Below, piece after piece: positions 323 through 59,781 of a stretch of DNA of 64,000 bases. Source of the DNA: Candidatus Poribacteria bacterium (GTDB lineage: Bacteria; Poribacteria; WGA-4E; JAJDTR01); NCBI GenBank assembly GCA_965222225.1, contig CBDCTK010000002.1, positions 4,032,001 to 4,096,000 on the forward strand, read 5' to 3'. Each line of letters begins with the position of its first letter. Positions within the stretch are counted from its first letter, which is position 1. The notes under the pieces are model-generated. The model worked only from the letters and a program-made list of their open reading frames with translations. It did no database searches and was not told the DNA's origin. The translations under genes were made by a program, and so were the position numbers.

Positions 323-418
323 GTAGGGGCGAGGAGGGGATCTCTATGGGAGTTCTATCGCAGTCATTATTCATTCCTTTGATCCTTCCTTATCCAGTCA
401 GTTGATCCTCGCCCCTAC
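323..418 (+). mobile_element. VB-unit doublet (337-407, inner unit 348-384) inside GTAGGGGCGAGG/CCTCGCCCCTAC REP palindrome
   Basis: gtaggggcgagga [gggatctctat [gggagttctatcgcagtcattattcattcctttgatc] cttccttatccagtcagttgatc] ctcgcccctac. Confidence 0.85.
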
Positions 419-556
419 GATATACGGTCACGTAACACGCCGGTTATTTGCGATTATACCAAATCGTCTCGACGCGCATCAGGGCGAAGACTCTCGGAAC
501 GGAGATGGGTTCAATTTGTCAAATGTCAACACGCGCTAGTACATTATGTAGGGTAC

Positions 557-593
557 GATCAACCGAGTGAGTAACGAGGGCGATAGAGGTTCT
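557..593 (-). mobile_element. Single VB unit
   Basis: gatcaa-cc-ga-gt-gagta-ac-ga-gg-gcgatag-aggttct, directly after a GTAGG REP start. Confidence 0.8.
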
Positions 594-652
594 CTCCCTG
601 TCGCGAGTAAAACTCGCTCCTACAGAAGATTGCTTAAGTTCTACTCTGCAAA

Positions 653-785
653 TTACGGCGTCCACGCTCGCGGCGCGATACCTTCAACGTGTGTCTTCAT
701 ATCAATGACCGCCGGCCTACCCGCGGCAAACGCCTGATCCAGCGCCCCCGCAAACTCGCTCGGTTTGTTGACCGTAATCCCGTTA
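653..785 (-). pseudogene. Duplicated 3' fragment of the TPP enzyme gene at 1655-3325
   Basis: GITVNKPSEFAGALDQAFAAGRPAVIDMKTHVEGIAPRAWTP nearly identical to the C-terminus of 1655..3325. Confidence 0.85.
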
Positions 786-798
786 CAACAATCGTACA

Positions 799-1245
799 TT
801 AGAACGGGATCAAGCGGCAAACCCAAAGCCCCAGAACTAAAGCGAACACACTCCCCGCAAGGCAATTTCGGATGGGTGCCGGGATTTTCAGCCAAGCCTT
901 CGGAAGTTTCCTCGGAAAGCATAAGGTGCCAATGGCTAACGGGACAATAAGATACGAAAACGGATGATAGCCCCAAGCCGTGGAAAATCTACCTTGCGCG
1001 AGAGAAACACAGGCGCGAGTCATACCGCAGCCGGGACACGGTATGTCCGTTACGAGGCGAAATGGACATGGCATCAGTGAAAGCTTGCCAATCGATAACC
1101 CTGACCATGCCGCGTAAATACCGACAAAGACAAGCCCAATCAGGAAAACTCGCGCAAGATGTACGTGATTAAAAGTCGGAGTGCTCACCGTAGGATTTGT
1201 TGATTTCCGCTTGTTGGATTGCCAGAGATGCGATACCGATACCAA
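799..1245 (-). CDS. DUF2752-type membrane protein (true start probably near 1190)
   Basis: CPFRLVTDIPCPGCGMTRA motif followed by hydrophobic helices. Confidence 0.8.
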   Translation of the reverse strand: MVSVSHLWQSNKRKSTNPTVSTPTFNHVHLARVFLIGLVFVGIYAAWSGLSIGKLSLMPCPFRLVTDIPCPGCGMTRACVSLAQGRFSTAWGYHPFSYLIVPLAIGTLCFPRKLPKAWLKIPAPIRNCLAGSVFALVLGLWVCRLIPF

Positions 1246-1441
1246 AAATCGCGAGCAAGACGCAGATAACTGCTAAATTATTGGCGACGCGCCAATCGTT
1301 GTTATGCTGAATCTCGTTGACCCCACTCGCCATTTTGTATTCGTAGTAAATGCCAAAGATACCGCACGTCAGAATGCTAAAAATTATCCCGAGTGCGATG
1401 CTTCTCACAGCGTCATTCATTGGATACGGATCGTCGCGCAT
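1169..1441 (-). CDS. DUF4234-type small membrane protein
   Basis: SILTCGIFGIYY...Q.EIN pattern. Confidence 0.75.
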   Translation of the reverse strand: MRDDPYPMNDAVRSIALGIIFSILTCGIFGIYYEYKMASGVNEIQHNNDWRVANNLAVICVLLAIFGIGIASLAIQQAEINKSYGEHSDF

Positions 1442-1654
1442 AATGGAACTTTTTCCATAAGGATACTTAGGAAACCGGAGTTGCCATCAATCAGAAATTT
1501 CGGGATCTGAGTTTTTGTCTATTAATCCCGCTTACGGGTCGGGCTAGAAGCCCGACCTACCGGGGTGGGTCGCAACTTGGGTTAGGTATGGTCGCTAAAT
1601 AATGTCAACGGCAAAGGATTCACGCCATGTCGAACAACCATCTCAAACATTTCA

Positions 1655-3525: not shown

Positions 3526-3713
3526 GATCAAGCGAGCGATTAGAGAGTGCGGTAGAGATTCTACCAGCCTTTAAATGCCACAGAGTGGGATTAAGTGAGG
3601 AGTAGCAATCAATGAAACGGATAGTGACAGGAATTTCTATGGGAGCCCTATCGCACTGACTATGAGATCTTCTATCGCCTTCGCTATTCACTCAGTTGAT
3701 CGATAGGGATTCC
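3526..3713. mobile_element. VB-unit cluster: decayed unit 3526-3562, plus a minus-strand unit (3607-3713) split by plus-strand units
   Basis: aatcaatgaaacggatagtgac [aggaatttctat gggagccctatcgcactgactat gagatcttctatcgccttcgctattcactcagttgatc] gatagggattcc. Confidence 0.75.
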
Positions 3714-6920: not shown

Positions 6921-6932
6921 ATTTCATTTAAA

Positions 6933-11993: not shown

Positions 11994-12065
11994 ACAGGGA
12001 TATTGCGCGAAGAAAGGCTGGTGCGCAGTGCGCACCCTACAAGACCTTAACCATATCGCGGCACA

Positions 12066-14299: not shown

Positions 14300-14492
14300 C
14301 TACTGTCGGAAAACGGAATTCCCTTCTGAACTAATGATAGGACAACCACATGAAGTTGTCCCTACACGGATAGGGTCAACGATCGTTGACCCTTACAAAA
14401 TAGAAAAAAACTTGCATTTCACCAAGGCGTTATGATATTCTAAGCGCGCAATTCGGATAGTAGTGTGGAATGCACGAAAGGAGGTGGACGAT

Positions 14493-14720: not shown

Positions 14721-14733
14721 CAATTCCCGGTTG

Positions 14734-16863: not shown

Positions 16864-19390
16864 ACGATGCCCTTTTCCAAATCTCTTGGACAGTTTGTTT
16901 CAACTGAAATTCCGAAAAGATTGCGCTCGTCTGCTTGAGTTGCTCCCCATACAGGTAAGTACGTGATTGATGCAACTTGCGTTTCTCGGATGGTGTTGGC
17001 AAGAGTTGCACTACCTTCCCGGAAGATTGTTCCCGACTTTTAATCAACTTCAATTCTTCGAAGATGCCTATCCCGTTACAAACCGCATCGGGCGGAATCG
17101 AATTCGTGCGGGCTGCCGCAACCACCTCGTCCAACCGGATCGGCGCGTCGCTCTGAGAACCCAAGGATGTTATCGTTTGATACAATTTCTTCAGCGTCTC
17201 TTCGTCCGGATATTGCCACGATAGCAAGGTGTGCATGGAATCGGCATCTTTCGCACTGTAGATGAGATGGATATAGGTCGTTTCCGGAAATCTGAACGCC
17301 GGTTGACACCGATTAAAGAAGATTAGAGGTGTGGACACCGGATGGCAAAACACGAGATGTTTCGCGCTTTGAGACGCCGCCATCAACGTCCGACTTGTGA
17401 CGATTGCGAGCAACTTTCCATTTCCAAGCGTGTCTACCAGACCTTCGATTTCCGACTCCGACGTTGCATCATCACACCTACCTATCAATTCTGTTTGCGG
17501 ACCGATTAAGTCCAAGAATCGGTCTATCGCTTTTCCGTCCCGCACATAGAAAACGATAGGTTCTTCTTGTTCGAGGAGTTTCGAGAGATACGCCTTTTTG
17601 TCCGTGTGCCGCCGATCAACCAGCTTTACGGGACTATCCGTATCCTCCGTTGGAAACACGACTTGACGTTCGTGACGGTCGATTTTGCGGATGTCCTTGA
17701 TTGCCAACTGGGGCGAACTCCGTCCATTCCAATCGTTGATTTGAGGTGCACCAGCCAGATCGACGCATACGTTCTGTCCTCTCAACGCGATTTCGTAATC
17801 TGCCATCCCCCATCCTACCGCATCCAGCGCATGCCGTCCATCCGTCACATACAATTTTAGGTGTTGCTTCTCTTTGCCCATCCGGAGCGGCGGACGCTGG
17901 AGAACGAGTCCCCGGATTGCCAGTTGAGGCGCGGGATTGTCTTGGCCGAAGGGCTCCAGCAGATTTAGCTCCCGAATTGCGTTCAACGCGAGGAAAGACG
18001 CTTGCGCCTCGAAATCTATATCCAGTTTGGGAACGAGGTCCTCCTCCGATAGGTGTTCGGACGCATACTCGTTGAAACACTCCCTGAATTCCTCGATTTT
18101 TTCCGTTTCAATCGTTAATCCTGCCGCGGCTTGGTGCCCGCCGTGCTTGACCAGTAAATGCGTAGCGGCATTCAAACTGTCCGCCAAATTCAGTCCTTCA
18201 ATACTGCGTCCGGAACCGTGCGCTTCACTGCCATTGATTGCCAACAGAAAAACCGGGCGATGGTACATCTGCAGAATGCGTGAGGCAACAATCCCGACCA
18301 CTCCTTGATGCCAACCCTCCCGAGCTAACACCAACCCCTTGGCTTCATCGAGATTGACCGACCTCTTGACCAACTCGATTGCCTCCTCACGAATTCTGCC
18401 TTCGACTTCCCGTCGCTCCGTGTTGTTGGCATCAAGTTCCTCGGCAAAAGGAAGTGCCGCTTCATAGGATTCTGCCGTGAGCAGTTCAACGACCTTTGAA
18501 GCCGTGTCCATACGTCCGGCAGCATTGATGCGAGGCCCAAGCACAAATCCGAGTGTATGTCCGACAATAGGCTTGTTCTCGCTGAAACCGGCGACCTCGC
18601 ATAGCGCGTGAATCCCCGGACGTTTCCTATTATTGATTTCCGCCAGTCCCAGCTTGGTGAGCGTTCGATTTTCCCCCGTCAGCGTAGCCATATCGACGAC
18701 AGTGCCGAGGACGACGAGATCGAGTTGGTCAATGAGCGGTTGCGTAGGTTCGCCGCCTCCCATCAAGCCGTGAGCGAGCTTAAACGCCAGACCGACACCC
18801 GCCAAGCCATCGAGCAGGTACTCGCTATCCGCCATCTTGGGGTTAATGACGGCATGCGCGGAAGGCAACGCATCCGGAGGCGCTTGATGGTGATCGGTGA
18901 TGATGACATCCATTCCGACGTCATTCGCGAGTTTCACCTCGTTTACTGAGGTAATCCCGCAATCGACCGTGATGACGAGATCGCACCCCTTCGCTTTTAG
19001 ATCCTTCACGGCTTCTTGGTTCAGACCGTACCCCTCCCTAAACCGATCAGGAATGTAGTAGCGCACGGGCGCATCAAGCTCGCGAAAGACGCTTAACAGC
19101 AGCGCGACAGCGGTAGTGCCATCGGTATCGTAGTCGCCGTAGACCCAAATCTGCTCGCCTTTTTCTCTTGCCGCGTGAATTCGATCCACAGCCTTCTCCA
19201 TATCGTGCATCAGGAACGGATCGTGCAGATTGGAGAGAGTTGGGTACAGATACGTCTGCGCCGTCTCTACCGTTTCAATGCCGCGATTGACCAGCAGTTG
19301 CGCGACGAGTGGGGACACTTCAAGCCTCACCGCCAATGCGGAACTCTTCTCAATGTCGGGGGATTTGACTCGCCACTCCTTCTTCGTCAT
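16841..19390 (-). CDS. recJ: ssDNA exonuclease RecJ with long C-terminal extension
   Basis: GDYDTDG, TVDCG, TDHH, PRINAAGR, GGHQAAAG, LEPFGQDNP. Confidence 0.95.
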   Translation of the reverse strand: MTKKEWRVKSPDIEKSSALAVRLEVSPLVAQLLVNRGIETVETAQTYLYPTLSNLHDPFLMHDMEKAVDRIHAAREKGEQIWVYGDYDTDGTTAVALLLSVFRELDAPVRYYIPDRFREGYGLNQEAVKDLKAKGCDLVITVDCGITSVNEVKLANDVGMDVIITDHHQAPPDALPSAHAVINPKMADSEYLLDGLAGVGLAFKLAHGLMGGGEPTQPLIDQLDLVVLGTVVDMATLTGENRTLTKLGLAEINNRKRPGIHALCEVAGFSENKPIVGHTLGFVLGPRINAAGRMDTASKVVELLTAESYEAALPFAEELDANNTERREVEGRIREEAIELVKRSVNLDEAKGLVLAREGWHQGVVGIVASRILQMYHRPVFLLAINGSEAHGSGRSIEGLNLADSLNAATHLLVKHGGHQAAAGLTIETEKIEEFRECFNEYASEHLSEEDLVPKLDIDFEAQASFLALNAIRELNLLEPFGQDNPAPQLAIRGLVLQRPPLRMGKEKQHLKLYVTDGRHALDAVGWGMADYEIALRGQNVCVDLAGAPQINDWNGRSSPQLAIKDIRKIDRHERQVVFPTEDTDSPVKLVDRRHTDKKAYLSKLLEQEEPIVFYVRDGKAIDRFLDLIGPQTELIGRCDDATSESEIEGLVDTLGNGKLLAIVTSRTLMAASQSAKHLVFCHPVSTPLIFFNRCQPAFRFPETTYIHLIYSAKDADSMHTLLSWQYPDEETLKKLYQTITSLGSQSDAPIRLDEVVAAARTNSIPPDAVCNGIGIFEELKLIKSREQSSGKVVQLLPTPSEKRKLHQSRTYLYGEQLKQTSAIFSEFQLKQTVQEIWKRASYECRNSN

Positions 19391-19646
19391 GATGAAGTTA
19401 TACTATCATGAACCGGAAACGCCGTCAAGAGTAAGAACAATGGCAATCAGGGGAAACGCGTCTGATTGTAGGCATCCAAGTGACCAAACGAAGGGAGATC
19501 AAGCGACTGGAATGGGTAGCAACTTAAATTAATTCTAACGCTTTCTGTCACTTGGCAAACACTTTTCCACGTTGCGAGGAAGATATGAATTGCCGTATCA
19601 TTATCATGATTTTCTTTCGAGTACAGGAAAAACGAGGGCGCGGTGT

Positions 19647-19752
19647 GGATCTCTATGGAAATTCTATCGCCCTCACTATTCGTTCGGTTGATCGCTCCCT
19701 ATGGGATATACTGTCAAGTTTGCTATCGCCTTCCTTATCCAGTCAGTTGATC
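19647..19752 (+). mobile_element. VB-unit cluster inside a ...CTCGCCCCTAC REP
   Basis: ggatctctat ggaaattctatcgc-cc-tc-ac-tattc-gt-tc-gg-ttgatc ... ctatcgc-ct-tc-ct-tatcc-ag-tc-ag-ttgatc. Confidence 0.8.
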
Positions 19753-19827
19753 CTCGCCCCTACGATTAGGTGTTTCTCGGCGAATGTCAGGACGGGATAC
19801 ATGGCTTAATTAACCCCGGAGGAACAG

Positions 19828-20910
19828 ATGAGAGCTGCACGTTTTTATGGAGGTAAAGATATTCGAGTCGAAACTGTGCCGGAGCCAGAGCCGGAGGAGC
19901 GCGAGGTACTCGTTGAAGTCCAAGCAACCGGCATCTGCGGCAGTGACCTGCACGGCTATCACCATCAGCCGGATAAACCACGACCCCCTGCAACAGGCGG
20001 ACACGAACTCACGGGACGAGTCACCGGCGTTGGGGTGGCGGTTCGTCAATATCAGATCGGCGATCAGGTCGTCGTCGAGCCGATAGTCCCATGCAACAAT
20101 TGCCCTGAATGTCTAAACGGCAATTACAATCTGTGTTCAAAGCTCATTCATATCGGCGGTTCCAGAGGAAAACGTCTGGGCAATGTTTTCAGCGGGGGCT
20201 TTGCCGAGTATATGGTTGCGCCCGAAGATAACGTCTACGAATTACCTAATCGGGTTTCGTTCGAGGCGGGAGCAATGGCTGAAGTTTACGCCGTAGCCGT
20301 CCACGCCTTGTCGATGGCGCCAGTCCATCCGGGCGATAGCGTGGCGGTCATCGGCAGCGGTCCGGTCGGTTTGGCGCTCGCGCAGATGGCGCAACTGGCT
20401 GGTGCGGTGTCCGTCGCTGTCTTGGGCAAACCGGACGCGCCGTTACAAATTGCCAAAGAGTCGATCGGCATCTTCCCGATTAACGTAGACGCAGCCGACG
20501 CGGTCGAGGCAGTCCAAGCGTGGACGAACGGTCGCGGCGCGAATGTCGTCTTCGAGGCGGTCGGCGGAAGGGCACAAACGCTTCAGCAAGCGACGCAGAT
20601 TGCCGCGATACGGGGGAAAATTTGTATGGTCGGTGGACACACCGGCGCGCTTGAGTTGGACACGCGGTTCGCAAGGGGTCGTGAATTGACCCTCACGTGG
20701 TCATTCTGCTACGGTCGGCGAGATGGAAAGCGGGAGTTTCAGATTGCGCTCGACCTGATGGCGGCCGGCAAACTCGACCCAATGCCGTTAATCACTCACC
20801 GTTTCCCACTAGATGAGATTCAACAGCCGTTTGCCGTCGCCGCCGGACGTGATGAACACGGCTCGGTGAAGGTTCTGGTATTGCCCTCCGACTCACACGG
20901 AGATCACTGA
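19828..20910 (+). CDS. Zn-dependent MDR alcohol/sugar dehydrogenase (copy 1)
   Basis: GICGSDLH, GHE, CxxCxxC-x7-C structural Zn site, GSGPVG. Confidence 0.92.
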   Translation: MRAARFYGGKDIRVETVPEPEPEEREVLVEVQATGICGSDLHGYHHQPDKPRPPATGGHELTGRVTGVGVAVRQYQIGDQVVVEPIVPCNNCPECLNGNYNLCSKLIHIGGSRGKRLGNVFSGGFAEYMVAPEDNVYELPNRVSFEAGAMAEVYAVAVHALSMAPVHPGDSVAVIGSGPVGLALAQMAQLAGAVSVAVLGKPDAPLQIAKESIGIFPINVDAADAVEAVQAWTNGRGANVVFEAVGGRAQTLQQATQIAAIRGKICMVGGHTGALELDTRFARGRELTLTWSFCYGRRDGKREFQIALDLMAAGKLDPMPLITHRFPLDEIQQPFAVAAGRDEHGSVKVLVLPSDSHGDH

Positions 20911-20921
20911 AAACTTCGAGA

Positions 20922-20993
20922 GATCAAATGAGCGAATAGCGAATGCGATAGAGATCCCTTCAAACGAGCGATTAGCGAACAGGATAGGTCTTC
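20922..20993 (-). mobile_element. VB unit (20922-20958) plus a decayed neighbour
   Basis: gatcaa-at-ga-gc-gaata-gc-ga-at-gcgatag-agatccc. Confidence 0.85.
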
Positions 20994-21223
20994 AGGGTTA
21001 AGTGCGAGAATGAAACTTGTTGCGGGAACACGCGTTTGCCCTATGAGTGCAAGTTGATTGCAATGATACCCAATATGGTTCTGGAGGCCCCGATGTATGC
21101 GCTCTTGACACAACTGCTTGACACTTCCAACTACCGGGTGGTTTCTGCCGTGATTACAACAGATATAGTCGTTTCAACCAAGATTTATGCATATAGGATT
21201 TACACTGTTCGGTTTGTAGTCGC

Positions 21224-21355
21224 GATCAAGGGAGCGAATAGCGACTGCGATAGGGATCTTAAATAGAGATCAGGATTTACTATGGGAGTTCTATCGCACT
21301 CATTATTCATTCGCTTGATCCATCCTTATCCAGTCGGTTAATCGATAGAATTCCC
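21224..21355. mobile_element. Mixed-orientation VB-unit cluster inside a GTAG...GCGCAATTYATTGCGC REP
   Basis: Flanks match the uninterrupted copy at about 52576-52640. Confidence 0.85.
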
Positions 21356-21416
21356 TTTATTGCGCGTCTTCTGTAGGAGCGAGTTCTGCTCGCGATAGGA
21401 GGTCGCGATTCGGAGA

Positions 21417-21453
21417 GGGATCTCTATCGCACTCACTATCCGTTCGCTTGATC
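21417..21453 (+). mobile_element. Clean single 37-bp VB unit in the REP GTCGCGATTCGGAGATCGCTCCTAC
   Basis: gtcgcgattcggaga [gggatctctatcgcactcactatccgttcgcttga] tcgctcctac; uninterrupted REP at about 10503, 28553, 31400, 34028. Confidence 0.9.
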
Positions 21454-21517
21454 GCTCCTACAATCCTTTGGATGCGTCACTGCGTAAGTCCTAAGTTCGA
21501 CGTTTTACGTTTGTAAG

Positions 21518-21678
21518 GATTAAACAATCGGATAGCGATCGGATAACGATCAAAATTTTCTATCGCACTTGGATGTCTATCGCACTAACTGTGGGATCTA
21601 CTATTAGGATTCACTATCGCACTCATTAGCCATTCGCTTGATCCTTCGCTATCCGCTCAGTTGATCGTTCCTTTGATC
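21518..21678. mobile_element. Large nested VB-unit cluster
   Basis: Several GGAT..CTAT heads followed by three successive ...TTGATC tails. Confidence 0.8.
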
Positions 21679-21865
21679 GCTCACCCCAATCTACAAGCCG
21701 CGAAACTCTATAAACATCGCTTTTTCTTTGTTATTTTGTAGAAAATCCCCGAAATTACGGGAGTTTCAGATTGAAATCCACTGGCAGATGTGCTAAACTG
21801 AAAGGTAATGCGCAATTATTTGGCACAAACACTCCACCCCCAAACTGTTTCAACGAGAGTGAACA

Positions 21866-22855
21866 ATGGGATCTAGCCAGAACTCAGCGGCACATTTGGA
21901 AAACATGCGGCACCGCCGCATAAATCGAATGAAGCGTCAAAGAGCAATTGAAATCGGTAAACCGGTTGATGTCTCTTTGAAACCCATGGCATTGAACTCT
22001 TTACAGAAGAAGGAACTTTCCGGGCTGCAACTGCACGCTCACGGCGACCAGAAACATCAGGGCGCGAAGCGAAGCAGGGCATCCGTATTGGCTTCCTTGG
22101 GGCTTCACGCGATTATGGTGTTTATTGCGGCATTCTACGTCGTCAGAACCACTCAAGTTGATGACGAGGCTGTCAGCGTCGACTTTTTTCAACAGATTCT
22201 GGAAAAACGCAATCCGCCTATACGGAAGGAGGTAGTAAAGCAGAAAGCACTGCCTACCGAGCCGCTTAAGCCAATAGTCCTACCGGTACCGAAAGTGCCG
22301 GTGCGTCCAATCACATCAGACAGCGAAGGCAGCTTAGGAGACCCTAGTATGGGAGGTCTTGTTGATTCAGGTCTCGTCGCGGGTGGTAACATAAACACTG
22401 GCGGTATTATAGATAACTTAGGACCCGTCAAGCCACCGACATTTGATACCGGCGATCCAACGGAGAGTTTCCGACCAACATTCGACGAAGACGGTCTGGG
22501 TGTAATTGGTGAGCCGCCAGACCTTGAGAATACTCCCGACGCCGACCTCACCGGCGGCGATGCCTTCAAGCCCACGGAGATATTAAGGCCGCCCAGTTTC
22601 CGCAATAAAGTCGAGCCGAAATACCCGAGCGCGGCGAAGCGCGCCGGGAAAGAGGGCAAGGTTGTTCTGATGGCTACCATTGGCGTGGATGGCAAGGCTA
22701 CAGACATTGAGGTGAAGGAGGACAAAGTTGGATTTGGCTGCGCAAGAGCCGCCATACGGGCTTTGAAATCCTCACGCTTCAACCCTGCCAAACGGGGTGG
22801 GGAGAGCGTTCCCCAGAGGATATCCGTTCCGTATACCTTCAAAATTGAAGAATAA
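21866..22855 (+). CDS. tonB: Energy transducer TonB
   Basis: SLGLH transmembrane motif, Pro-rich linker, PKYPSAAKRAGKEGKV...FNPAKRGG..V. Confidence 0.85.
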   Translation: MGSSQNSAAHLENMRHRRINRMKRQRAIEIGKPVDVSLKPMALNSLQKKELSGLQLHAHGDQKHQGAKRSRASVLASLGLHAIMVFIAAFYVVRTTQVDDEAVSVDFFQQILEKRNPPIRKEVVKQKALPTEPLKPIVLPVPKVPVRPITSDSEGSLGDPSMGGLVDSGLVAGGNINTGGIIDNLGPVKPPTFDTGDPTESFRPTFDEDGLGVIGEPPDLENTPDADLTGGDAFKPTEILRPPSFRNKVEPKYPSAAKRAGKEGKVVLMATIGVDGKATDIEVKEDKVGFGCARAAIRALKSSRFNPAKRGGESVPQRISVPYTFKIEE

Positions 22856-22966
22856 ACGCCTCGCCGGTACGGTCAACAAACGCGTAAAACACAGGTCACT
22901 TTGGACCCAAATTGACGCGCCTAGGTTTAGCAAAACCACATCCCGCCGTTTGAAGGAGGTCAAACA

Positions 22967-23838
22967 ATGAAATCCAGCCAAGGGATTTCTGTGGCACATC
23001 TGGAAACCGTACGGCAGCGTCGCATGAGGCGAATTCGGCGTCAACGAGCGATTGAAGTCGGTAAACCGGTTGATGTCTCTTTGAAAGCCATGGCGTTGAA
23101 CCCTACCCAAAAGAGGGTACTTTCCGACCTGCACGTCCAACCGCATGTCGACCAGAAGCATCAAATCATGACACCGAAACGCGTGTCCGTAATGGCTGCT
23201 TAGGGCTTCACCTAATCGCCGTACTGCTTGGATCCTATTATGTTCTTAAACCCGCCCGTCTTGATGCTGAGACGAAAAACGGTGAAATTGTCCACTCAAT
23301 CTGCGGTATCGGAGCACGCAGTCTCCCACCTCTTCAATTTTCAAGAACGCCAAATCCGGTTCCCTCGGGATTGGGGTGCATGGGCGGTAATCCATCGGGA
23401 AATTTTGTCCCTACTCCTGGTTATGAGAAAATTCGCCGCGACGCTTTCAGCTCTCTTGAAGTTACGAGACCGCCCAGTTTCCGCAAAAAAGTCGAGCCGA
23501 AATACCCGAGCGAGGCGAAGCGCGCCGGGAAAGAGGGTAAGGTTGTTCTGATGGCTACCATTGACGTGGATGGCAAAGCCAAAGAAATTGAGGTCAAGGA
23601 GGACGAGGTTGGATTTGGCTGCGCCAGAGCCGTCATACAGGCTTTGAAATCCTCACGCTTCAACCCTGGCAAACTGGGTGACGAGATTGTCCCCTACAGA
23701 ATAGCAATCCCCTATCAGTTCAAGTTGGAAGATGAAGTGACTCGCGCGAACCGTCAACAAACGCGCGTGAACCACAGGTCACCGCGAACGTCCATTGAGA
23801 GCGATCTCGTGAAGATAGTCGAAGTCGGTTGTTGGTAG
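22967..23838 (+). pseudogene. Degraded second tonB copy
   Basis: N-terminal RQRAIEVGKPVDVSLK and C-terminal PKYPSEAKRAGKEGKV match 21866..22855; stop codon and frameshifts in between. Confidence 0.85.
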
Positions 23839-24010
23839 AGAGAGTGTTTCCACAGGTTTGTCAAAGCAGACTAAAAGGCACTCCGATGCGTCATACTTTT
23901 TTCTATTGGCAAAATTGAACCCGAAATTCATTCTTGGGCAACCCTCTTAGCCTATAGCCGCGCCTCGGTTTAGAAAAACCACATCCGGCCCGCTTGAACG
24001 AGGCCAAGCA

Positions 24011-24212
24011 ATGAAATCCAGCCAGGACAATTCCACAGCACATTTGGGGGACATGCAACGGCGTCGCATGCAAGGAGGACAAGGTTGGATTTGGCTGCGC
24101 AAGAGCCGCCATTCAGGCTTTGAAATCCTCATGGTTCTACCCTGCCAAACGGGGTGAGGAAATCGTTCCCCAGAGGATAACCATTCCGTATACCTTCACA
24201 ATTGAAGATTAA
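24011..24212 (+). pseudogene. Third, internally deleted tonB remnant
   Basis: atgaaatccagcca start joined directly to aaggaggacaaggttggatttggctgc...attgaagattaa. Confidence 0.8.
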
Positions 24213-25095
24213 CAGTTTCATGGGAAGGTCAATTAATGAGGCGATAACAGTAACGCTTCCCCGCTTCATTTCGCTTGTTAGCCCCCCAAACCTCTTTAGA
24301 CTCACATTAACGCTTGCCGTTCTTTTGCTCACCTCTTCTCTCGCCCTCTCCGCCGAATTCCCGTTTGAAGAAGCGCGACCGCACTATACCGGGGCGCGTG
24401 CCTTGGGAATGGGGAATGCGTTTACCGCTGTCGCCGATGACGCTTCGGCGGGCTTCTGGAATCCCGCGGGATTGATTCAGTGGACAGGCGTAAAACTCTT
24501 TGGCGTCAACAAATTGCATGACCGCTCGGATTACGCCTTCGATCCGAAGGGCATCGGCTATTCCTATCGTAGATTCGGCTTATTCTGGGGCAACAAAATC
24601 GCGTTGGGCGTCGAGTCGGGAACCCCGGATTTCAACTACTACGGGTTTGCCTACCAGATAAGTTCGCACGTTGCGGGCGGCGCCAACGTCAAATTTCAAC
24701 GCGCACATCCGAGCGACCATTACCAGTTCTTTGGTACGGATCCCTCCTACGATTTTGCTCTCCTCCTCAAGCCTAGCGCCAATCTTAAGTTCGGTCTTCT
24801 GGCGGGACGCCTGCCCAAGACGCGCGGAGTTCGCTGGGTAACGCTAGGCGCCGCATTCCAGTTTCGGCAGGCGCTGTTTGCATCGGACATCGCCATACCG
24901 CGTTCGGGGCGCCCAGACCTCTATTTCGGTATCGAGTGGTCAGCCCTGCCGTTCCTATATCTGCGCACCGGCTATTCGGCTCACGATTGGACGGGCGGCA
25001 TCGGCTACGATTGGAAATGGGGACGCATCGACTACGCCAGAATCTACGAAGACAAATTTACGTCGGATTTTATCTCGGCGGAAATACGGTTTTGA
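24202..25095 (+). CDS. PorV/UPF0164-like outer-membrane beta-barrel protein (start uncertain)
   Basis: GARALGMGNAFTAVADDASAGFWNPAGL motif; C-terminal Phe. Confidence 0.7.
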   Translation: MKINSFMGRSINEAITVTLPRFISLVSPPNLFRLTLTLAVLLLTSSLALSAEFPFEEARPHYTGARALGMGNAFTAVADDASAGFWNPAGLIQWTGVKLFGVNKLHDRSDYAFDPKGIGYSYRRFGLFWGNKIALGVESGTPDFNYYGFAYQISSHVAGGANVKFQRAHPSDHYQFFGTDPSYDFALLLKPSANLKFGLLAGRLPKTRGVRWVTLGAAFQFRQALFASDIAIPRSGRPDLYFGIEWSALPFLYLRTGYSAHDWTGGIGYDWKWGRIDYARIYEDKFTSDFISAEIRF

Positions 25096-25201
25096 AGGCA
25101 TCTTCCGATGCTCCTACCCCTGCACCATTCGACCATTCCAATAATTGGGCGCTTTCTATACTGCCCACGTTTTGACGGAACAATCCAAGCCGAAAAACCG
25201 A

Positions 25202-25230
25202 TTGACACACGAATCCTTTCAGGTTATGCT
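25202..25230 (+). promoter_or_regulatory. sigma70-like promoter of the rsmD operon
   Basis: TTGACA-17 bp-TATGCT. Confidence 0.6.
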
Positions 25231-25247
25231 TACGGAACAAAAATCTG

Positions 25248-25829
25248 ATGAGAATCATCTCCGGAAGGTTCAAAGGCAAACGCTTGACCTCGGTCAAAGC
25301 GAACACGGTGCGACCGACTTCGGATCGTGTAAAAGAGTCCGTGTTTGGGATTCTGGGCGACAGGATAATCGATTCAAATTTCCTGGACCTCTGCGCGGGC
25401 ACGGGCAACATTGGGCTTGAAGCATTGAGCCGCGGGGCGAAATCTGTGACCTTTGTTGATCGGAGCCCTCATTGCATCCGCGTGATTAAGTCCAATCTTT
25501 CGGGTTGTAGTGTGAGCGGCGACGAACCTCACGTAAATATCGTCAAGCTGGATATGCTCAAGGGAATCGCTTTTTTCGCTCGGCGCAACGCCCGATTTGA
25601 TTTAATCTACTTCGATCCGCCTTACGATTCGGACATCCATGAAGCTTGCCTGAGACAGATTGATAAGAACAATATGCTGCTACCCCTCGGTCAAGTTATC
25701 GTGGAGCGGCGGAGAGAACGGAAGGGAGAGTGCGCTGCGCCTGTAGCGTTTGACGAGTTGAGACTGAAACGACAGGAACGGTACGGTGATACGGTTATAT
25801 CGTTCTACCAAAGGGAGGACACTGGATGA
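25248..25829 (+). CDS. rsmD: 16S rRNA m2G966 methyltransferase
   Basis: MRIISG..RPTSDRVKES, LDLCAGTG, DPPY. Confidence 0.93.
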   Translation: MRIISGRFKGKRLTSVKANTVRPTSDRVKESVFGILGDRIIDSNFLDLCAGTGNIGLEALSRGAKSVTFVDRSPHCIRVIKSNLSGCSVSGDEPHVNIVKLDMLKGIAFFARRNARFDLIYFDPPYDSDIHEACLRQIDKNNMLLPLGQVIVERRRERKGECAAPVAFDELRLKRQERYGDTVISFYQREDTG

Positions 25830-26611: not shown

Positions 26612-26699
26612 AGATGATTCCGATGACGCTTGGTCGACGAACTCGTAAGTCCTATATTCGATTCGAGATGCGCAAGAGTCGGAATTAACGGAGGGAAAA

Positions 26700-27668: not shown

Positions 27669-27704
27669 TCCTCGACCAATGCCGCGTAAGGCATATTGGG
27701 AAAA

Positions 27705-28400: not shown

Positions 28401-28499
28401 TGAGAAAGTCTTGTGTTTTTAGGAGTATTTGTGCAGAGATAGATAAAGCAATTTGCTGACACCGGCGAAAACGGAAAGAGCCAATCGCCCCGTAGGAGG

Positions 28500-28536
28500 G
28501 ATCAACTGAGCGGACAACGAAGGCGATAGAGATCCC
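28500..28536 (-). mobile_element. Single VB unit in a GTAGGAG REP
   Basis: gatcaa-ct-ga-gc-ggaca-ac-ga-ag-gcgatag-agatccc. Confidence 0.85.
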
Positions 28537-33926: not shown

Positions 33927-34073
33927 TGCAACTCCTTTTTCTAAAGTGTGGTATAAACAACTCTCAATGGGCGACAGATCGCCCCACCAAAGTAACAGTT
34001 TCTAGATTGCATAAGATTGTGCAATTTGTCGCGATTCGGAGATCGCTCCTACCAGTGTGCTTCCCGTGGGAGG

Positions 34074-34120
34074 AATCAAGGGAACGGATAGTGACCGCGA
34101 TAGAATTCCCATAGAGATCC
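34074..34120 (-). mobile_element. VB unit with an extra head, in a REP pair
   Basis: aatcaa-gg-ga-ac-ggata-gt-ga-cc-gcgatag-aattccc-atag-agatcc. Confidence 0.85.
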
Positions 34121-34230
34121 TCTCCGATTCCCGACATCACGAAGGCATTCCAATTCCCGACGATAGCTCGCGATTCGGAGATCGCTCCTACAAACCATTT
34201 GGTGTTCAACTGCGCAAATCCTAACGTTTA

Positions 34231-37346: not shown

Positions 37347-37446
37347 GGGATTTCTATGGGATCGCTATCGCCCTAAGAGCTCTATCGCATTCGCTAATCG
37401 CTCATTTGATCCTATCCGGTCGGTTGATCTATTCGCTCCCTTTATC
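37347..37446 (+). mobile_element. Nested VB-unit cluster
   Basis: gggatttctat gggatcgctatcgc... ctatcgc-at-tc-gc-taatc-gc-tc-at-ttgatc ctatcc-gg-tc-gg-ttgatc tattc-gc-tc-cc-tttatc. Confidence 0.8.
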
Positions 37447-39928: not shown

Positions 39929-39965
39929 AGGATTTCTATCGCACTCACTATTCGCTCGCTTGATC
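39929..39965 (+). mobile_element. Single VB unit in a GCCCC/GGGGCT palindrome
   Basis: aggatttctatcgc-ac-tc-ac-tattc-gc-tc-gc-ttgatc. Confidence 0.85.
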
Positions 39966-40098: not shown

Positions 40099-40135
40099 GG
40101 GATTTCTATCGCATTCGCTATTCGCTCATTTGATC
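40099..40135 (+). mobile_element. Single VB unit; empty-site homologue at 3714-3736
   Basis: ttttcaagaaaaaa [gggatttctatcgcattcgctattcgctcatttga] tcggtttc versus ttttcaagaaaaaactcggtttc. Confidence 0.9.
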
Positions 40136-40524: not shown

Positions 40525-40614
40525 AATCAAGCGAGTGGACAGCGAAGGATCAAAGGAGCGAATAGCGACTGCGATAGTAAATCCTGATAACAAATCCCGT
40601 ACGATAGAGATCCC
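40525..40614 (-). mobile_element. Nested VB-unit cluster in a GTAGG REP
   Basis: Two ATCAA tails and three ATAG/ATAA..ATCC heads. Confidence 0.8.
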
Positions 40615-43123: not shown

Positions 43124-43252
43124 AACAAGGGAATGGATAATGAGTGATCGCACGACCGAATAGAATCAAACGAGTGGATAGATCAAATGAGCGATTAGCA
43201 AGCTGGATTTACTATGGGAGTTCTATCGCACTCATTATTCATTCGCTTGATC
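43124..43252. mobile_element. Mixed-orientation VB-unit cluster
   Basis: Several ATCAA-VB-GA-VB-GRATA tails, then ggatttactatgggagttctatcgcactcattattcattcgcttgatc (identical to about 21273-21320). Confidence 0.8.
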
Positions 43253-43946: not shown

Positions 43947-44016
43947 AATCAAGCGAGTGGATAACAAGTAATCAAGGGAATGGATAATGACCGCGATAGA
44001 GTTCCCATAGAGATCC
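43947..44016 (-). mobile_element. VB-unit cluster in the loop of a GTAGGTTGGGTTGA/GAAACCCAAC REP
   Basis: gtaggttgggttgaac [aatcaa...agatcc] ggtgaaacccaac; uninterrupted relatives near 54278 and 57698. Confidence 0.85.
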
Positions 44017-44284: not shown

Positions 44285-44427
44285 AATCAAGCGACTGAAT
44301 AAGGATCAGGGGAGTGGAAAGCGAGTGCGATAGAGATCTTAAGGCGATAGTAAATCCCGTGCGATAGAATTCCCATAGAGATCCCCGCGATAGAGATTTT
44401 TCTTGCACCGCCCGCGATAGAACTCCC
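44285..44427 (-). mobile_element. Large VB-unit cluster with at least five heads
   Basis: Repeated gcgatag-NN(N)atcc/tccc heads after aatcaa/gatcag tails. Confidence 0.8.
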
Positions 44428-46699: not shown

Positions 46700-47055
46700 A
46701 TGGCTAAACGAAGGAGATTCACATCCCAATTTAAGGCTGAAGTCGTTATTGAGGTACTTACCGGTCAAAGTTCACAAGCGGAACTTTGTCGGCGGCATAA
46801 CCTCAGCCAAGAGCAATTATCAAAGTGGAAACACCAACTTCTTGACAACGCAGCGACTCTCTTTGAATCCACTGACAAGCAATCCACTGATTATAGAGAA
46901 CGGATTGCTCAACTGGAGCAGCTTGTTGGGATCAAACGAACGATCAACTGAGTGGATAACGAAGGCGATAGCAAATCCCATAGTGAGTGCGATAGGGATC
47001 CCTAGTGAGTTTGGCGTTAGACATCCAAAAAAAAGCCTTGACTTTGCTCAATTGA
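46700..47055 (+). pseudogene. IS3 orfA interrupted by a nested VB insertion
   Basis: Removing 46932-47002 restores ...EQLVGIVSLALDIQKKALTLLN*. Confidence 0.85.
46930..47002 (-). mobile_element. Two-level nested VB insertion (inner unit 46942-46979)
   Basis: Reverse complement: gggatccctatcgcactcactat [gggatttgctatcgccttcgttatccactcagttga] tcgttcgtttgatc. Confidence 0.9.
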
Positions 47056-48065: not shown

Positions 48066-48137
48066 GGGATCTCTATCGCGTGGGATCTACTATCGCACTC
48101 CCTATTCGGTCGTTTGATCCTATTCGGTCACTTGATC
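48066..48137 (+). mobile_element. Two-level nested VB insertion in a GGTGCGGTTAGA/CGCACCTAC REP
   Basis: gggatctctatcgcgt [gggatctactatcgcactccctattcggtcgtttgatc] ctattcggtcacttgatc. Confidence 0.88.
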
Positions 48138-48186: not shown

Positions 48187-48295
48187 GAGATTTCTATCGC
48201 AGTCACTTTGGGATTTACTATCGGGATTAGCTATCGCAGTCATTGTCCATTCCCTTGATCCTTCGCTATCCACTCAGTTGATCGTTCGTTTGATC
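48187..48295 (+). mobile_element. Three-level nested VB insertion in a GGCGGAGG/CCCCGCCTAC REP
   Basis: A 48187-48209, B 48210-48222, complete C 48223-48260, rest of B 48261-48283, rest of A 48284-48295. Confidence 0.88.
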
Positions 48296-49439: not shown

Positions 49440-49498
49440 ATCAAGCGACCGATCAAGTGACCGAATAGGGAACGCGATAGAGTTCCCATAGAGATCCC
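49412..49498 (-). mobile_element. VB-unit cluster overlapping the stop codon of the PD40 gene
   Basis: gatcaaggga tatcaaaggaaggaat gaatcaagcgacc gatcaa-gt-ga-cc-gaata-gg-ga-ac-gcgatag-agttccc-atagagatccc. Confidence 0.75.
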
Positions 49499-52142: not shown

Positions 52143-52270
52143 GAGCGATCTCCCGGTCGCGACCACAGTTACTACCCATTTTCGGTAGGTCGGGCTTCCA
52201 GCCCGACCCGCGCGCGCGATAATAAACAAAGTAGCCTGTAGTGTGCGATAGAACTCCCCTAGAGATCCCG

Positions 52271-54130: not shown

Positions 54131-54183
54131 GATCAACCGACCGAATACGGAGTGCGATAGGAAATCCCGCGCGATAGCCATCC
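54131..54183 (-). mobile_element. VB unit plus a head, in a GTAGGGTGCGCA REP
   Basis: gatcaa-cc-ga-cc-gaata-cg-ga-gt-gcgatag-gaaatccc-gc-gcgatag. Confidence 0.8.
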
Positions 54184-57780: not shown

Positions 57781-57878
57781 GATCAAACGACTGGACAGAA
57801 TCAAGTAACCGAATAGGGAACGCGATAGAAAATCCTGTGCGATAGAGATCCCCGCGTTAGAAATCTCATAGAGTTCCC
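57781..57878 (-). mobile_element. Nested VB-unit cluster
   Basis: gatcaa-ac-ga-ct-ggaca gaatcaa-gt-aa-cc-gaata-gg-ga-ac-gcgatag-aaaatcc...gcgatagagatccc. Confidence 0.8.
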
Positions 57879-58061
57879 CTTGCCTCGCCGTGAAACACCA
57901 AAATTCAAGCGAAACCCAACACGCCATCTGCATGTTATCAGAAACCGCTGACGACGTTTTCAATGGTCAACCAAGAAGCTAGACGACCAAAATATCTGGC
58001 GTTTTTCTCCAACACTTGATTGGCACCATCCACTAGTCAAACAGAACCTTAATGTTTTTGC

Positions 58062-58090
58062 TTGACTTCGTAAACATCAACCCCTATAAT
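58062..58090 (+). promoter_or_regulatory. sigma70-like promoter upstream of the LamG gene
   Basis: TTGACT-17 bp-TATAAT. Confidence 0.65.
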
Positions 58091-58274
58091 GCCTGATATC
58101 CATTCGTTCGCATAAGCTACTTTAGATAATGTGGACGGTAAGCCATGTGTGTCAGAATGTCAGGAACTGAGGGAAGAATCGCTCTACCCCTCGAATCGTC
58201 TGAGTTTGAAGTACCCCAAATAGCTGGTAAATTAAGTAACTTAACATTGTAGCTTTTGACAGGAGGAAACTAAA

Positions 58275-59096
58275 ATGCTGAGATTGAAACACCTCGCAAT
58301 CCGCTTTTTTGTCGTCGCATTTGTCTGCGTATTGCCTGTCGTGGGAGATAGCGCCGAAGTCCCCGAAGTAGCATTCCACTTCACCATGGATGAAATAAGT
58401 GGTGACGAAACCATGGATGTCAATGGCATGGTGGGAATTCTTGAAAATGGTCCCGTCGTGGTTGCCGGTAGACATGGAAACGCGATTCAGTTTACACGTT
58501 CTGATGAACAAGCCATTGAAATTTTCCCGGATCCCGCCACAAACTTTGGCACTGGCGATCTTAGCTTGGAAGCCTGGGTTAAGACTCCTTTTGACCAGGA
58601 ACAGTCCTACATCTTTAATAAGTGGGGCCCCTGGGAGGCGCCGGAGACTCCGTGCTGTAGGGGATACCGGCTTACTATTGAGCCGGGCGGCCAGCTTGAT
58701 ACCATATTTAATGATGGGGTCCCGGACGATGAACGCCTCGCCAACGAAGGCTTCGTTAGGGGTAGTGACACCTCGGTTGCCGATGGCGAATGGCATCATG
58801 TGGTCGTGACTCGGAAGGATACATCAATCATCCAGTTCTGGATAGATGGTGTACTCGACCACGAGATTGAAGAAGCCGCAGCTGCTGGTTCGATTGATAA
58901 CACCACCAATCTGTATCTTGGCAGAAGCCACAAGAATAGGGGCTGGTTTGACGGTCTGATCGACGAGGTTCGCGCGTGGAGGGGAGCTCTGAACGAAACA
59001 CAAATTGCTCAAGCAATGAGCGGAGCCGCCGTCACTGCCGTTGAACCCGTGGGGAAACTTCCGCTAATCTGGGGTCAGATAAAAGCTGACCATTAG
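58275..59096 (+). CDS. Secreted LamG-like jellyroll protein
   Basis: Signal peptide, SLEAWVK, DGEWHHVVV, FDGLIDEVR; C-terminal AVEPVGKLPLIWGQIK. Confidence 0.88.
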   Translation: MLRLKHLAIRFFVVAFVCVLPVVGDSAEVPEVAFHFTMDEISGDETMDVNGMVGILENGPVVVAGRHGNAIQFTRSDEQAIEIFPDPATNFGTGDLSLEAWVKTPFDQEQSYIFNKWGPWEAPETPCCRGYRLTIEPGGQLDTIFNDGVPDDERLANEGFVRGSDTSVADGEWHHVVVTRKDTSIIQFWIDGVLDHEIEEAAAAGSIDNTTNLYLGRSHKNRGWFDGLIDEVRAWRGALNETQIAQAMSGAAVTAVEPVGKLPLIWGQIKADH

Positions 59097-59164
59097 GCCT
59101 GCTTGCAGCCCATCGGTAGTTCGGGTGCAAATGATATCGGATTTTCGTGTTGATTCAAACATCG

Positions 59165-59224
59165 ACGGTGGGGTGCGCACGTCAACCCAACACCCAATTG
59201 GTTTGTCGTGTGCACCCCACCGTT
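59165..59224. repeat. Long hairpin downstream of the LamG gene (possible terminator or RNA stabiliser)
   Basis: gacggtggggtgcgcacg...cgtgtgcaccccaccgtt. Confidence 0.55.
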
Positions 59225-59448
59225 GTCACTCCGATAAATGTTAATAATCCCGTTTCACGGGATTTTACACAACCTGCGTGCCTCAATCCCTTCTAGCCGT
59301 CCCTTCTCAAGAAGCGGATAATTCTCCCACTTCTATTGCCGAATGAACCGTACTGTATTCAGCAAACAGAAGTTTTGAGCAACCACCATCCGCTCGCTTG
59401 ATTGGTTTCTTTCTTTCAAAATTCTGTAGCGTTCCCCGCTCCAGAGGA

Positions 59449-59521
59449 GATCGAACGAGTGAATGACGATCAACCGAGTGGACAGCGAGGGCGATAGCAA
59501 ATCCCGTGCGATAGAGATCCC
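59449..59521 (-). mobile_element. Two-level nested VB insertion
   Basis: gatcgaacgagtgaatgac [gatcaa-cc-ga-gt-ggaca-gc-ga-gg-gcgatag-caaatccc] gtgcgatagagatccc. Confidence 0.85.
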
Positions 59522-59781
59522 TTTCCAACCGCACCCAGCCCCGCCCCTACGGATATCGAGCGCCATGAAATCATCTTCTGTGGCGGCCCCATCAATGAAT
59601 GGGTTGGTATTCCCTCGCCCAAGTCTACGTGGAGATTAACAGTTTGAGACATTGAATCCGCATGACTTACACCCTAAAACGCTTAACTTGATCCCTATGG
59701 GGAGTGCGATAGAGTTCCCATAGCATTCCCCATGTTGATAGCACGCTATCGGCGTTGAATCCCTGCGATTTTGAGTTCACC

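Follow-up and report, generated by a model that had tools for sequence, protein, structure and literature searches.

A hairpin repeat of 35-37 nucleotides in Candidatus Poribacteria, probably a non-autonomous miniature mobile element

What kind of thing is a repeat of fewer than 40 nucleotides that lies scattered in both orientations between the genes of a bacterial chromosome, is interrupted by further copies of itself, and holds most of its letters fixed while a few of them change? The question is raised by 64,000 nucleotides of a Candidatus Poribacteria bacterium (GenBank assembly GCA_965222225.1, contig CBDCTK010000002.1, positions 4,032,001 to 4,096,000 of the forward strand), a stretch that is called here the window. 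A preliminary description of the window placed the repeat, here called the unit, at 27 loci. It viewed four dinucleotide slots within the unit as hypervariable and proposed a diversifying system, in which a trans-acting enzyme writes short oligonucleotides with position-specific variability. The analysis presented here leads to a different view. The unit is probably a non-autonomous miniature mobile element, of the kind that includes repetitive extragenic palindromes (REPs) and small dispersed repeats (SDRs), found in two genera of Candidatus Poribacteria.

The unit itself is real and abundant. The pattern CTATCGC-NN-TC-NN-TAYYC-NN-TC-NN-TTGAT, sought on both strands with up to 2 mismatches, occurs 27 times in the window and 0 times in 100 dinucleotide shuffles of it; of the 27 loci first reported, 25 correspond to a complete unit or to the beginning of a nested cluster with a complete unit inside. 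The genome as a whole (5.70 Mb in 2 contigs, 49.8% G+C) contains 1012 copies at the same threshold, of which 529 are exact and 1009 are chromosomal, with 570 distinct cores. These are dispersed over 660 clusters. By an information profile of the 1012 copies, the unit extends from -7 to +29 relative to the core, or 37 nt. It begins with a moderately conserved head, GGGATYT, and continues with CTATCGC, nn, TC, nn, TATYC, nn, TC, nn, and TTGATC. The letters outside the slots (CTATCGC, TC, TATYC, TC, and TTGATC) are nearly invariant, at 1.7-1.9 bits, and it is the slot letters that vary. The two ends share only a GGGATC...GATC(CC) similarity and form no terminal inverted repeats.

Across the two genera, the unit is 35-37 nt long, and a core of 30 nt (CTATCGC, the slot-bearing middle, and TTGATC) is conserved. 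The 5' head is specific to the genus, being GGGATYT in the genus of the window (g1) and RAARA in the second genus (g4). In g4, whose loci come from chromosomes of 4.7-4.9 Mb, the core is unchanged, and some copies are head-to-head inverted doublets. The window's own genome (G000) also holds arrays of period 38 with a linker, CTACAAGA, that have the same short head as the g4 copies and stems that differ from copy to copy. Because the 30-nt core is shared by g4 and by these arrays while the heads differ, the 30-nt core is the real unit. One such tandem array, at G000:C2:1578374-1578560, joins its unit cores by CTACAAGA in a way that superficially resembles an array of clustered regularly interspaced short palindromic repeats (CRISPR), the variable part being the hairpin described below.

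The units are confined to DNA between genes, much as the preliminary description held: 73 of the 1009 chromosomal units overlap an open reading frame (ORF), against ~799 expected, by a crude map in which ORFs take up 79% of the chromosome. No Rfam family matches positions 19000-22500 of the window up to E = 1, and no viral contig has an exact match to the unit.

What, then, are the four slots? They had been taken as hypervariable, and they are not independent. The letters of slot 1 complement those of slot 4, and the letters of slot 2 those of slot 3, so that two helices of 2 bp are kept by compensatory change. Among the 1012 copies, the four variable pairs are of Watson-Crick type in 713, 918, 941, and 841 cases, where the maxima in 200 shuffles are 348, 424, 397, and 532; off-register pairings stay at the shuffle level. 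The signal is present already in the 27 window copies. Here, 91.8% of cells pair versus 74.4% when shuffled (0 of 500 shuffles reach 91.8%), partner columns slid out of register pair in at most 42.3%, and the covariation score is 0.458 versus 0.137. Genome-wide, each stem pair uses 2-3 pair types with one kind of intermediate between them, as in the example of CG 455, CA 137, TA 385, and TG 17.

The intermediates carry information about the strand that folds. On the written strand, the non-Watson-Crick cells of the 1012 copies are A.C in 446 cases and G.T in 66; A.C is, of course, G.T on the complement. Further, the conserved TC opposite TC becomes GA opposite GA on the complement, where the loop TATYC reads GRATA. 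Tandem sheared G.A pairs and triloops closed by G..A are stable structures. From the wobble bias and this stability of G.A, we infer that the complement is the strand that folds.

Paired slots share 1.7 bits of mutual information, and unpaired slots 0.45 versus 0.08 when shuffled; the slots and loop together show 245 combinations, versus 311 if they were independent. Thus, the slot states are diverse but have lineage structure. This is the picture of a population copied from its own copies and filtered for a hairpin, not that of a diversity generator, and the idea of position-specific writing is not supported: the letters in the slots are stem pairs of 2-3 types. It follows, too, that the preliminary description was right to set the unit apart from diversity-generating retroelements (variation is stem-compensatory, and the sole gene resembling a reverse transcriptase is a weak match beside a restriction gene) and wrong in spirit to set it apart from REPs as being palindromic. 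The unit is a small imperfect palindrome with a covarying stem.

How do the units come to sit where they do? For 278 of the 1012 units, an exact empty paralogous site is found in the same genome. Such empty copies of a site exist because the target is itself a repeat. Comparison of these filled and empty pairs gives no target duplication at any of the 278 and a loss of 0-3 target nucleotides, which bears out what had been said of the junctions. With neither terminal inverted repeats nor a target-site duplication, the unit is indeed not a miniature inverted-repeat transposable element (MITE). The right junction is constant: TTGAT is followed by C in 909 of the 1012 copies and then by G or C in 878. 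The point of entry directly adjoins the 5' side of a C-(G/C)-C or TC motif, where 0-3 nt are replaced. At the left junction, 0-3 target nucleotides are lost and the head varies in length. Many junctions are exact; GGAGA^TCGC, for example, is repeatedly filled by a complete unit.

Several targets recur. One is the family of REPs tagged with GTAG, entered at the centre or loop, with junctions GGAGA^TCGCTCCTAC (nothing lost), GGTGCGCAG[TG]CGCACC (TG lost), and CGGGGCAAG[ATG]CCCCGCC (the bracketed ATG lost). Inside these REPs, the complement of the unit is always on the GTAG strand. Another is the plain palindrome ACGA^TCGT. A third comprises the GCCCC hairpin REPs of an IS200-like gene, entered at the foot, CCTGT[CG]CCCC. 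The unit is also its own target, as first reported: by a strict test, 55 of the 1012 units are nested in their own kind. In 19 of these 55 the insertion follows the CTAT of the head, with CG lost. The other self-targets are the loop (TAT^TC), the junction of slot 1 with TC, and the unit's own end (TTGA^TC), the last giving tandems. Further, CTAC stands 5-6 nt downstream of 148 of the 1012 units, a peak that is missing from mirrored controls.

Simple rules do not capture these sites. A plain rule of insertion 5' of TC does not fit the case after the CTAT of the head with CG lost, the C^T cut rule of E. coli fits only some parses of the junctions, and no single cut rule can be derived from the junctions of units in self and REP targets. 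Flank-pairing energy does not discriminate (observed mean -5.92, versus -5.93 for mismatched flank pairs), and hairpins just upstream or downstream of the units are not enriched over shuffles.

Evidence for movement comes from close relatives. Directly downstream of the IS200-like gene lies a REP that holds a unit in three genomes (G000, G001, and G005) and is empty in three others (G002, G009, and G004). The window spacer 28401-28643 contains a REP pair (28492-28577) common to G000 and its closest relative, G005, with flanks 92-95% identical; G000 has a unit in the first half, which is empty in G005, and G005 has two units in the second half, which is empty in G000. In G002, G003, and G009, the same place is taken by a spacer of 32 nt that is free of repeats. 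At window 12020-12040, a REP that is empty in G000 holds a unit in G005. At 4 of the 4 regions compared, unit counts and intergenic lengths differ between species. Filled and empty orthologous sites, for which the preliminary description had called, thus exist in species 92-95% identical, and the unit has recently been mobile. The copies in the window are as follows, with the two remaining loci of the original 27 and the empty target at the end.

348..384, plus strand: inner unit, nested behind the CTAT of an outer unit, the rest of which extends to about 406
557..593, minus strand: unit
3526..3562, minus strand: unit, 2 mismatches
3665..3701, plus strand: unit nested in the cluster that starts near 3607
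19657..19693, plus strand: unit nested after CTAT of an outer head
19716..19752, plus strand: unit
20922..20958, minus strand: unit
21224..21260, minus strand: unit
21284..21320, plus strand: unit, nested
21417..21453, plus strand: unit inserted at GGAGA^TCGCTCCTAC of a GTAG-type REP
21607..21643, plus strand: unit in a nested cluster
28500..28536, minus strand: unit in the first half of the REP pair 28492-28577; site empty in G005
34074..34110, minus strand: unit (nested) in a REP; site empty in G009, G002, and G001
37375..37411, plus strand: unit in a nested cluster
39929..39965, plus strand: unit
40099..40135, plus strand: unit
40548..40584, minus strand: unit in a nested cluster
43216..43252, plus strand: unit nested after CTAT
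43970..44006, minus strand: unit (nested), adjoining a GTAGGTTGGGTT-type REP
44304..44340, minus strand: unit, 2 mismatches, in a nested cluster
46942..46978, minus strand: unit that interrupts the loop (TAT^TC) of an outer unit
48083..48119, plus strand: unit that separates slot 1 from TC in an outer unit
48224..48260, plus strand: unit in a nested cluster
49451..49487, minus strand: unit nested after CTAT
54131..54167, minus strand: unit, nested
57799..57835, minus strand: unit, the innermost of a triple nest
59468..59504, minus strand: unit that separates slot 1 from TC in an outer unit
52236..52270, minus strand: remnant of stacked heads without a hairpin (first reported as locus 52243)
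about 59700: remnant of stacked heads without a hairpin
12020..12040, plus strand: target REP of GTAG type, empty here and occupied by a unit at the orthologous place in G005

Which organisms carry the unit? A scan with one genome per species returned at least 80 loci, and the 80 listed are all in metagenome-assembled genomes (MAGs) of Candidatus Poribacteria. A sample of the phylum, 176 genomes counted at up to 1 mismatch, gives the following distribution.

g1, the genus of the window: unit in 10 of 10 genomes, 599-1304 copies each
g4, a genus of a different family: unit in 4 of 4 genomes, 206-212 copies each
g2: unit in 1 of 1 genome, 3 copies
rest of the phylum sample: 6 genomes with the unit, 1-19 copies each

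The search of the genome and its relatives that the preliminary description proposed gives 21 of 176 genomes with any match and 155 without. In three genomes with traces (G066, G125, and G146), the copies cluster on few contigs, as islands or mis-binned contigs would. A cyanobacterial origin was considered and set aside; the genome contains no phycobilisome match.

Any repeat this short and this regular must, of course, raise the suspicion of an adapter, a barcode, or an assembly error. The chance of this is negligible. The listed MAGs with units span long-read chromosomes, SPAdes assemblies, and MEGAHIT assemblies; all 14 genomes of the two genera have the unit; and 16 public runs, from 9 studies, contain half or more of a 10-kb segment of the window. 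Moreover, copies are species-specific, nested, and placed at orthologous sites, and a control with the pattern reversed gives 0 matches in every genome. Contigs of four runs (X3, X4, X13, and X17) on window 19001-35000 break at repeats and provide neither clean empty alleles nor information about RNA ends or levels; their listed joints have short sides of at most 29 letters, typical of repeat chimeras.

The orientation of the units is informative about what they respond to. Compared with the flanking genes, 293 have the same orientation and 334 the opposite one, and over 53 windows of 100 kb, unit orientation is uncorrelated with gene-strand bias (Spearman 0.06). With local GC skew, it correlates over the same 53 windows (Spearman 0.57, p 9e-6). 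When clusters are counted once, the written strand is on the G-rich strand in 341 cases versus 136 (p 2e-21). As the unit is C-rich on its written strand, it cannot itself cause the skew. The four abundant GTAG-REP families behave in the same way, their GTAG strand being the C-rich one in 65-81%, and units away from REPs have the same bias (311 versus 134). Thus, about 70% of the units, like the REPs, place the complement (for REPs, the GTAG strand) on the locally C-rich strand, which has the lagging-strand sequence, whatever the direction of the genes. In its orientation to replication, the unit behaves like the REPs of its host. This bias, being shared, implies a process or a selection that acts on DNA strands relative to replication. 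The GC skew of chromosome C2 is itself weak and changes sign many times, with unit and REP orientation flipping along; the sign changes suggest many rearrangements, or an assembly with inverted segments.

The densest cluster of units in the genome, 20 in 3 kb, lies in a type I CRISPR array beside cas3, cas7, cas5, and cas1 (G000:C2:2705500-2709700). The repeat of this array, GTAGCAACCATTGCCCCGATGAAAAGGGGACTGAAAG, is 37 nt long with a period of 72-76; 8 repeats are intact, and at least 4 are split by units. A unit in the written orientation abuts the 5' foot of the CCCC..GGGG hairpin of the repeat, and one in the complement orientation abuts the 3' foot. On either strand, then, a unit stands directly 5' of the hairpin of that strand. 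Intact repeats of this family number 52 in G005, 42 in G009, and 41 in G021 (g4), where units are only at or near the trailer end, and 59 in G024 (g6), where there are no units. The unit is not itself a CRISPR array, as had been argued from its lack of spacers; it is dispersed, and the true array, elsewhere in the genome, is one of the places that it has invaded. As side observations, Cas1 is ~80% identical between genera of different families, from which the locus may have moved horizontally, a route that the unit may possibly have shared, and several cas1 orthologs (G001, G003, G004, and G027) have one in-frame stop, which suggests decay in some lineages.

These observations can be joined into a mechanism. 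A new unit would be copied from existing genomic copies. It would pass through a single-stranded intermediate, in which the complement strand folds with sheared G.A pairs (tandem GA/AG and a G..A-closed loop) and tolerates G.T wobble. During or after replication, an ssDNA (single-stranded DNA) enzyme specific for both sequence and structure would cut and join in trans. Part of the spread would be passive, the unit being carried inside REPs that are themselves amplified or converted. The most plausible class for such an enzyme, judged by analogy, is HUH; one of its members, the REP nuclease of E. coli, is described in the passages seen of PMC3479197 as binding a tagged imperfect hairpin in ssDNA, cutting at C^T, and joining any 3'-OH. 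More specifically, a REP-associated HUH tyrosine nuclease (RAYT), of the kind that flanks host REPs in sister genomes, can be named as a tentative candidate. It is also conceivable, but rather doubtful, that the unit belongs to a distinct class of single-stranded hairpin elements, a "parasite of palindromes," pasted by a domesticated or other HUH nuclease at the foot or loop of hairpin repeats with replacement of 1-3 nt. The marks of recognition would be the mini-hairpin zippered by G.A pairs and the conserved letters that stay single-stranded.

A number of observations weigh against a REP-like element moved in this way, and these concern both the DNA and the enzyme. In most units, the strand that folds is the one on the leading-strand template, contrary to the paradigm set by IS608 and ISDra2, and the strand bias could come from selection against hairpins on the lagging-strand template. 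The isolated hairpin has a nearest-neighbour energy of 0 to -1.7 kcal/mol on either strand, no better than shuffles; a fold so marginal needs non-canonical pairs or a protein. An invariant pair in the lower stem is G.T on the written strand (964 of 1012) and therefore A.C on the complement, so the assignment of the folding strand is not clean. Perfect flank stems of at least 5 bp surround 68 of the 1012 units, versus 23 in shuffles, which makes a hairpin target common but not universal. Unlike a REP, the unit has neither a GTAG nor a CGTC tag; its foot is CTATCGC / GATCAA, while the REPs of the host carry GTAG. At the window-12020 REP, the unit in G005 has a right arm from another REP subfamily, which means that donor flank was co-transferred. 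This one flank, together with the variable head length and the loss of 0-3 nt, is unlike precise transposition by an HUH enzyme.

The search for the enzyme adds to these difficulties. The IS200-like gene (G000:C2:3080258-3080728; 157 aa, HUH, type L100) is one of five Y1-transposase matches in the genome. It has units on both sides; its cognate repeat, however, is a different REP, as seen across 22 loci with close relatives of the gene. This repeat consists of tandem CTATA..GCCCC-nnn-GGGGC or GCTCC-nnn-GGAGC hairpins, inverted on the two sides of the gene, and is conserved across four genera. A gene of the L100 type occurs in 7 of 7 sampled g6 genomes without units and was not found in 2 of the 4 g4 genomes with them. 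For the L101 type, the only finds are in G000 and G005, plus a partial copy in G009. L103 has close orthologs (69-78% identity) in just four genomes (G003, G006, G012, and G035), its relatives elsewhere being distant paralogs. The classical RAYT turned up in 7 of 9 sister genomes of g1, 2 of 4 of g4, 3 of 7 of g6, and 1 of 10 of g3, and in G000 it is truncated: C2:1545573-1545995 (minus) is a C-terminal fragment without the HUH half, in a dense field of GTAG-REPs and units. None of the four RAYT/HUH lineages tested co-occurs with units in g1 plus g4.

Intact RAYT relatives of 191-194 aa in G009, G002, G005, and G001 are flanked by the same GTAG-REPs, some of which hold units, and a g4 relative of 180 aa, in G015 and G027, is flanked by GTAGGTTGGGTT REPs with units in their loops (2 of 2 loci, with units within 330 nt). 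In G000, 75 ORFs have units on both sides, inverted at 28 of them; these 28 are mostly metabolic genes, and the nucleic-acid enzymes among them are limited to the IS200-like gene, cas1, and the truncated RAYT. The genome has a sole gene resembling a reverse transcriptase, a protein of 670 aa with a weak RVT_1 match and a YVDD motif (G000:C2:4499560-4501572). It adjoins a gene for a type I restriction enzyme and is probably a defence reverse transcriptase. Two copies in G010 were considered as a master locus; they are ordinary decayed nested copies in a REP.

The preliminary description had called for a trans-acting enzyme, and in this it was partly right. Since no gene lies in the unit, some trans-acting activity is needed. 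No enzyme is linked to the unit, however, and the particular activity proposed, the writing of diversified oligonucleotides, finds no support in variation that consists of stem pairs. Of the enzymes it named, the four HUH lineages, one Cas1 lineage, and one RT-like gene (RT, reverse transcriptase) mismatch the distribution or the context of the units.

Might the unit, then, spread with no dedicated enzyme at all? Accidents of replication or repair at hairpins, either polymerase stalling with copy-choice template switching or gene conversion among scattered REPs, using short microhomology at TC or C-S-C and supplemented by riding in REPs, would produce the ragged left junction, with its variable head and 0-3 nt lost, and also the flank co-transferred at the window-12020 REP in G005. 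It would suit an orientation tied to replication, the 47 identical unit cores that lie mostly within one REP family, and the failure of every candidate enzyme to fit. We consider it unlikely, however, as the invariant unpaired letters point to recognition by a protein rather than mere stalling at a hairpin, as many junctions are exact (GGAGA^TCGC, repeatedly filled with a complete unit, being one), and as targets so unrelated as CRISPR repeats, GCCCC REPs, and the unit itself are entered without long homology. A different kind of explanation sees the unit as a structured motif useful to the host, such as an RNA stabiliser or a site bound by a protein of the nucleoid, of methylation, or of repair, which looks mobile only through the REPs that carry it. 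Strong conservation across two genera in different families, intergenic location, and two GATC sites per unit in its common form would be expected of such a motif. Presence and absence at orthologous sites in close species would not, nor would units that nest, that split CRISPR repeats, and that are oriented without regard to flanking genes; the lack of an Rfam match and the 155 of 176 phylum genomes that do without the unit make this explanation quite improbable.

Two further proposals invoke a specific machine. In the model of the preliminary description, an RT or a primase-polymerase writes a diversified oligonucleotide that an integrase then inserts. The 570 distinct cores among 1012 copies, the 245 slot and loop combinations out of 311 if independent, and a left junction that is variable and G-rich do have the look of diversification. 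The variation is confined, however, to paired letters, where it is compensatory and where wobble intermediates link the pair types; it has lineage structure; the one weak RVT_1 match sits beside a type I restriction gene; and orientation follows replication, not transcription. The model is accordingly very improbable. Off-target integration of a recurrent spacer-sized DNA by the Cas1-Cas2 of the type I CRISPR system draws on a unit length (35-37 nt) near that of a spacer, on the densest cluster being in the array beside cas1, and on the fact that the hairpin part of invaded CRISPR repeats is on both sides of the insert; Cas1-Cas2 has, in addition, a preference for palindromes. Yet no Cas1 of the close lineage was found in G002, G006, or G008, which have 599-895 units, and G024 and G037, which have no units, do possess it. 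Nor is there a repeat or target duplication at REP or self targets, and the fixed sequence is unlike that of spacers, so that this route, too, is highly unlikely. A miniature mobile element of the REP and SDR kind thus continues to be the reading that we favour.

How does such an element compare with those already described? Its nearest counterparts are the SDRs of Nostoc, which it resembles in size and habits, while in structure and strand behaviour it is like a REP. To our knowledge, the report of these SDRs in 2008 is the one earlier description of independently moving repeats under 40 nt. According to Elhai et al., these SDRs reportedly nest in themselves, leave no target duplication, and have a variable complementary stem. 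As described in the passages seen of the literature, the Nostoc SDR4-6, and SDR5 in particular, are like the unit in being very short, high in copy number, dispersed, and inserted precisely into a short palindrome. SDR5 is a 21-nt repeat associated with the palindrome HIP1 in a few heterocystous cyanobacteria, and its function, like the mechanism of SDRs, is given as still unknown in 2026 in the portions seen of PMC13756078. An extract of PMC4390886 places its insertion precisely between the third and fourth letters of HIP1 (GCGATCGC), as GCG^ATCGC. The frequent unit site GA^TCGC resembles this site, a likeness that is one of description. HIP1 itself is not abundant in the host genome, with 120 copies of GCGATCGC in 5.7 Mb. 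The unit differs from SDR5, as the latter is known from such descriptions, in its phylum (Poribacteria), its length (35-37 nt), its sequence, and its REP and CRISPR-repeat targets. The part seen of PMC5861425 states that SDR-like repeats were not detected beyond Nostocaceae. From the text available, Bertels and Rainey count SDRs among the repeats perhaps explained by the REPIN-RAYT approach (PMC3116915), and Di Nocera et al. list them among untagged REP-like families (PMC3733652).

Compared with REPs and REPINs, the unit is likewise a short, extragenic, imperfect hairpin in hundreds of copies, with conserved single-stranded letters at the 5' foot and conserved mismatches in the stem. It shares the replication-strand bias of the host GTAG-REPs, it is found inside the REPs that flank RAYT genes, and in g4 some copies form inverted doublets. 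Unlike the repeats of REPIN-RAYT systems, it does not appear to be itself the cognate repeat that flanks a RAYT, and no RAYT lineage co-occurs with it. It also nests and inserts into other repeats, which the literature passages seen do not describe as a property of REPs. With the IS200/IS605 family, the unit shares the absence of target duplication and of terminal inverted repeats, a hairpin, insertion adjacent to a motif, and an orientation coupled to replication. It has one hairpin, however, where IS200/IS605 elements have distinct subterminal hairpins, and its junctions lose 0-3 nt where theirs are exact, on the 3' side of a tetra- or pentanucleotide. A survey of the literature on repeats, REPs, and transposases in Poribacteria found no description of such units.

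The unit adds a second, independent, and much richer case of a mobile repeat under 40 nt, with ~600-1300 copies in each of ten genomes and ~210 in each of four, and several of these genomes have closed chromosomes. If it is indeed the Poribacteria counterpart of the Nostoc SDRs, eroding CRISPR arrays by splitting their repeats as a side effect, working it out would explain how elements of this size move. The filled and empty orthologous sites, the structure signature, the strand bias, and candidate nucleases that can be expressed make transposition of such tiny elements directly testable. The units also have consequences for their hosts and for those who sequence them: they inflate and reshape the intergenic DNA of a dominant phylum of sponge symbionts, split CRISPR repeats, and break short-read assemblies.

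The window offers two minor observations apart from the unit. Opposite positions 14324-14392, where G000 has a 68-nt spacer, G005 has an insertion of 1.2 kb with a long open frame, which is possibly an insertion sequence (IS) element. Positions 20987-21167 hold a repeat of ~120-180 bp, perhaps a MITE or a composite of REPs, of which all five sister genomes searched have dozens of copies each at 75-92% identity.

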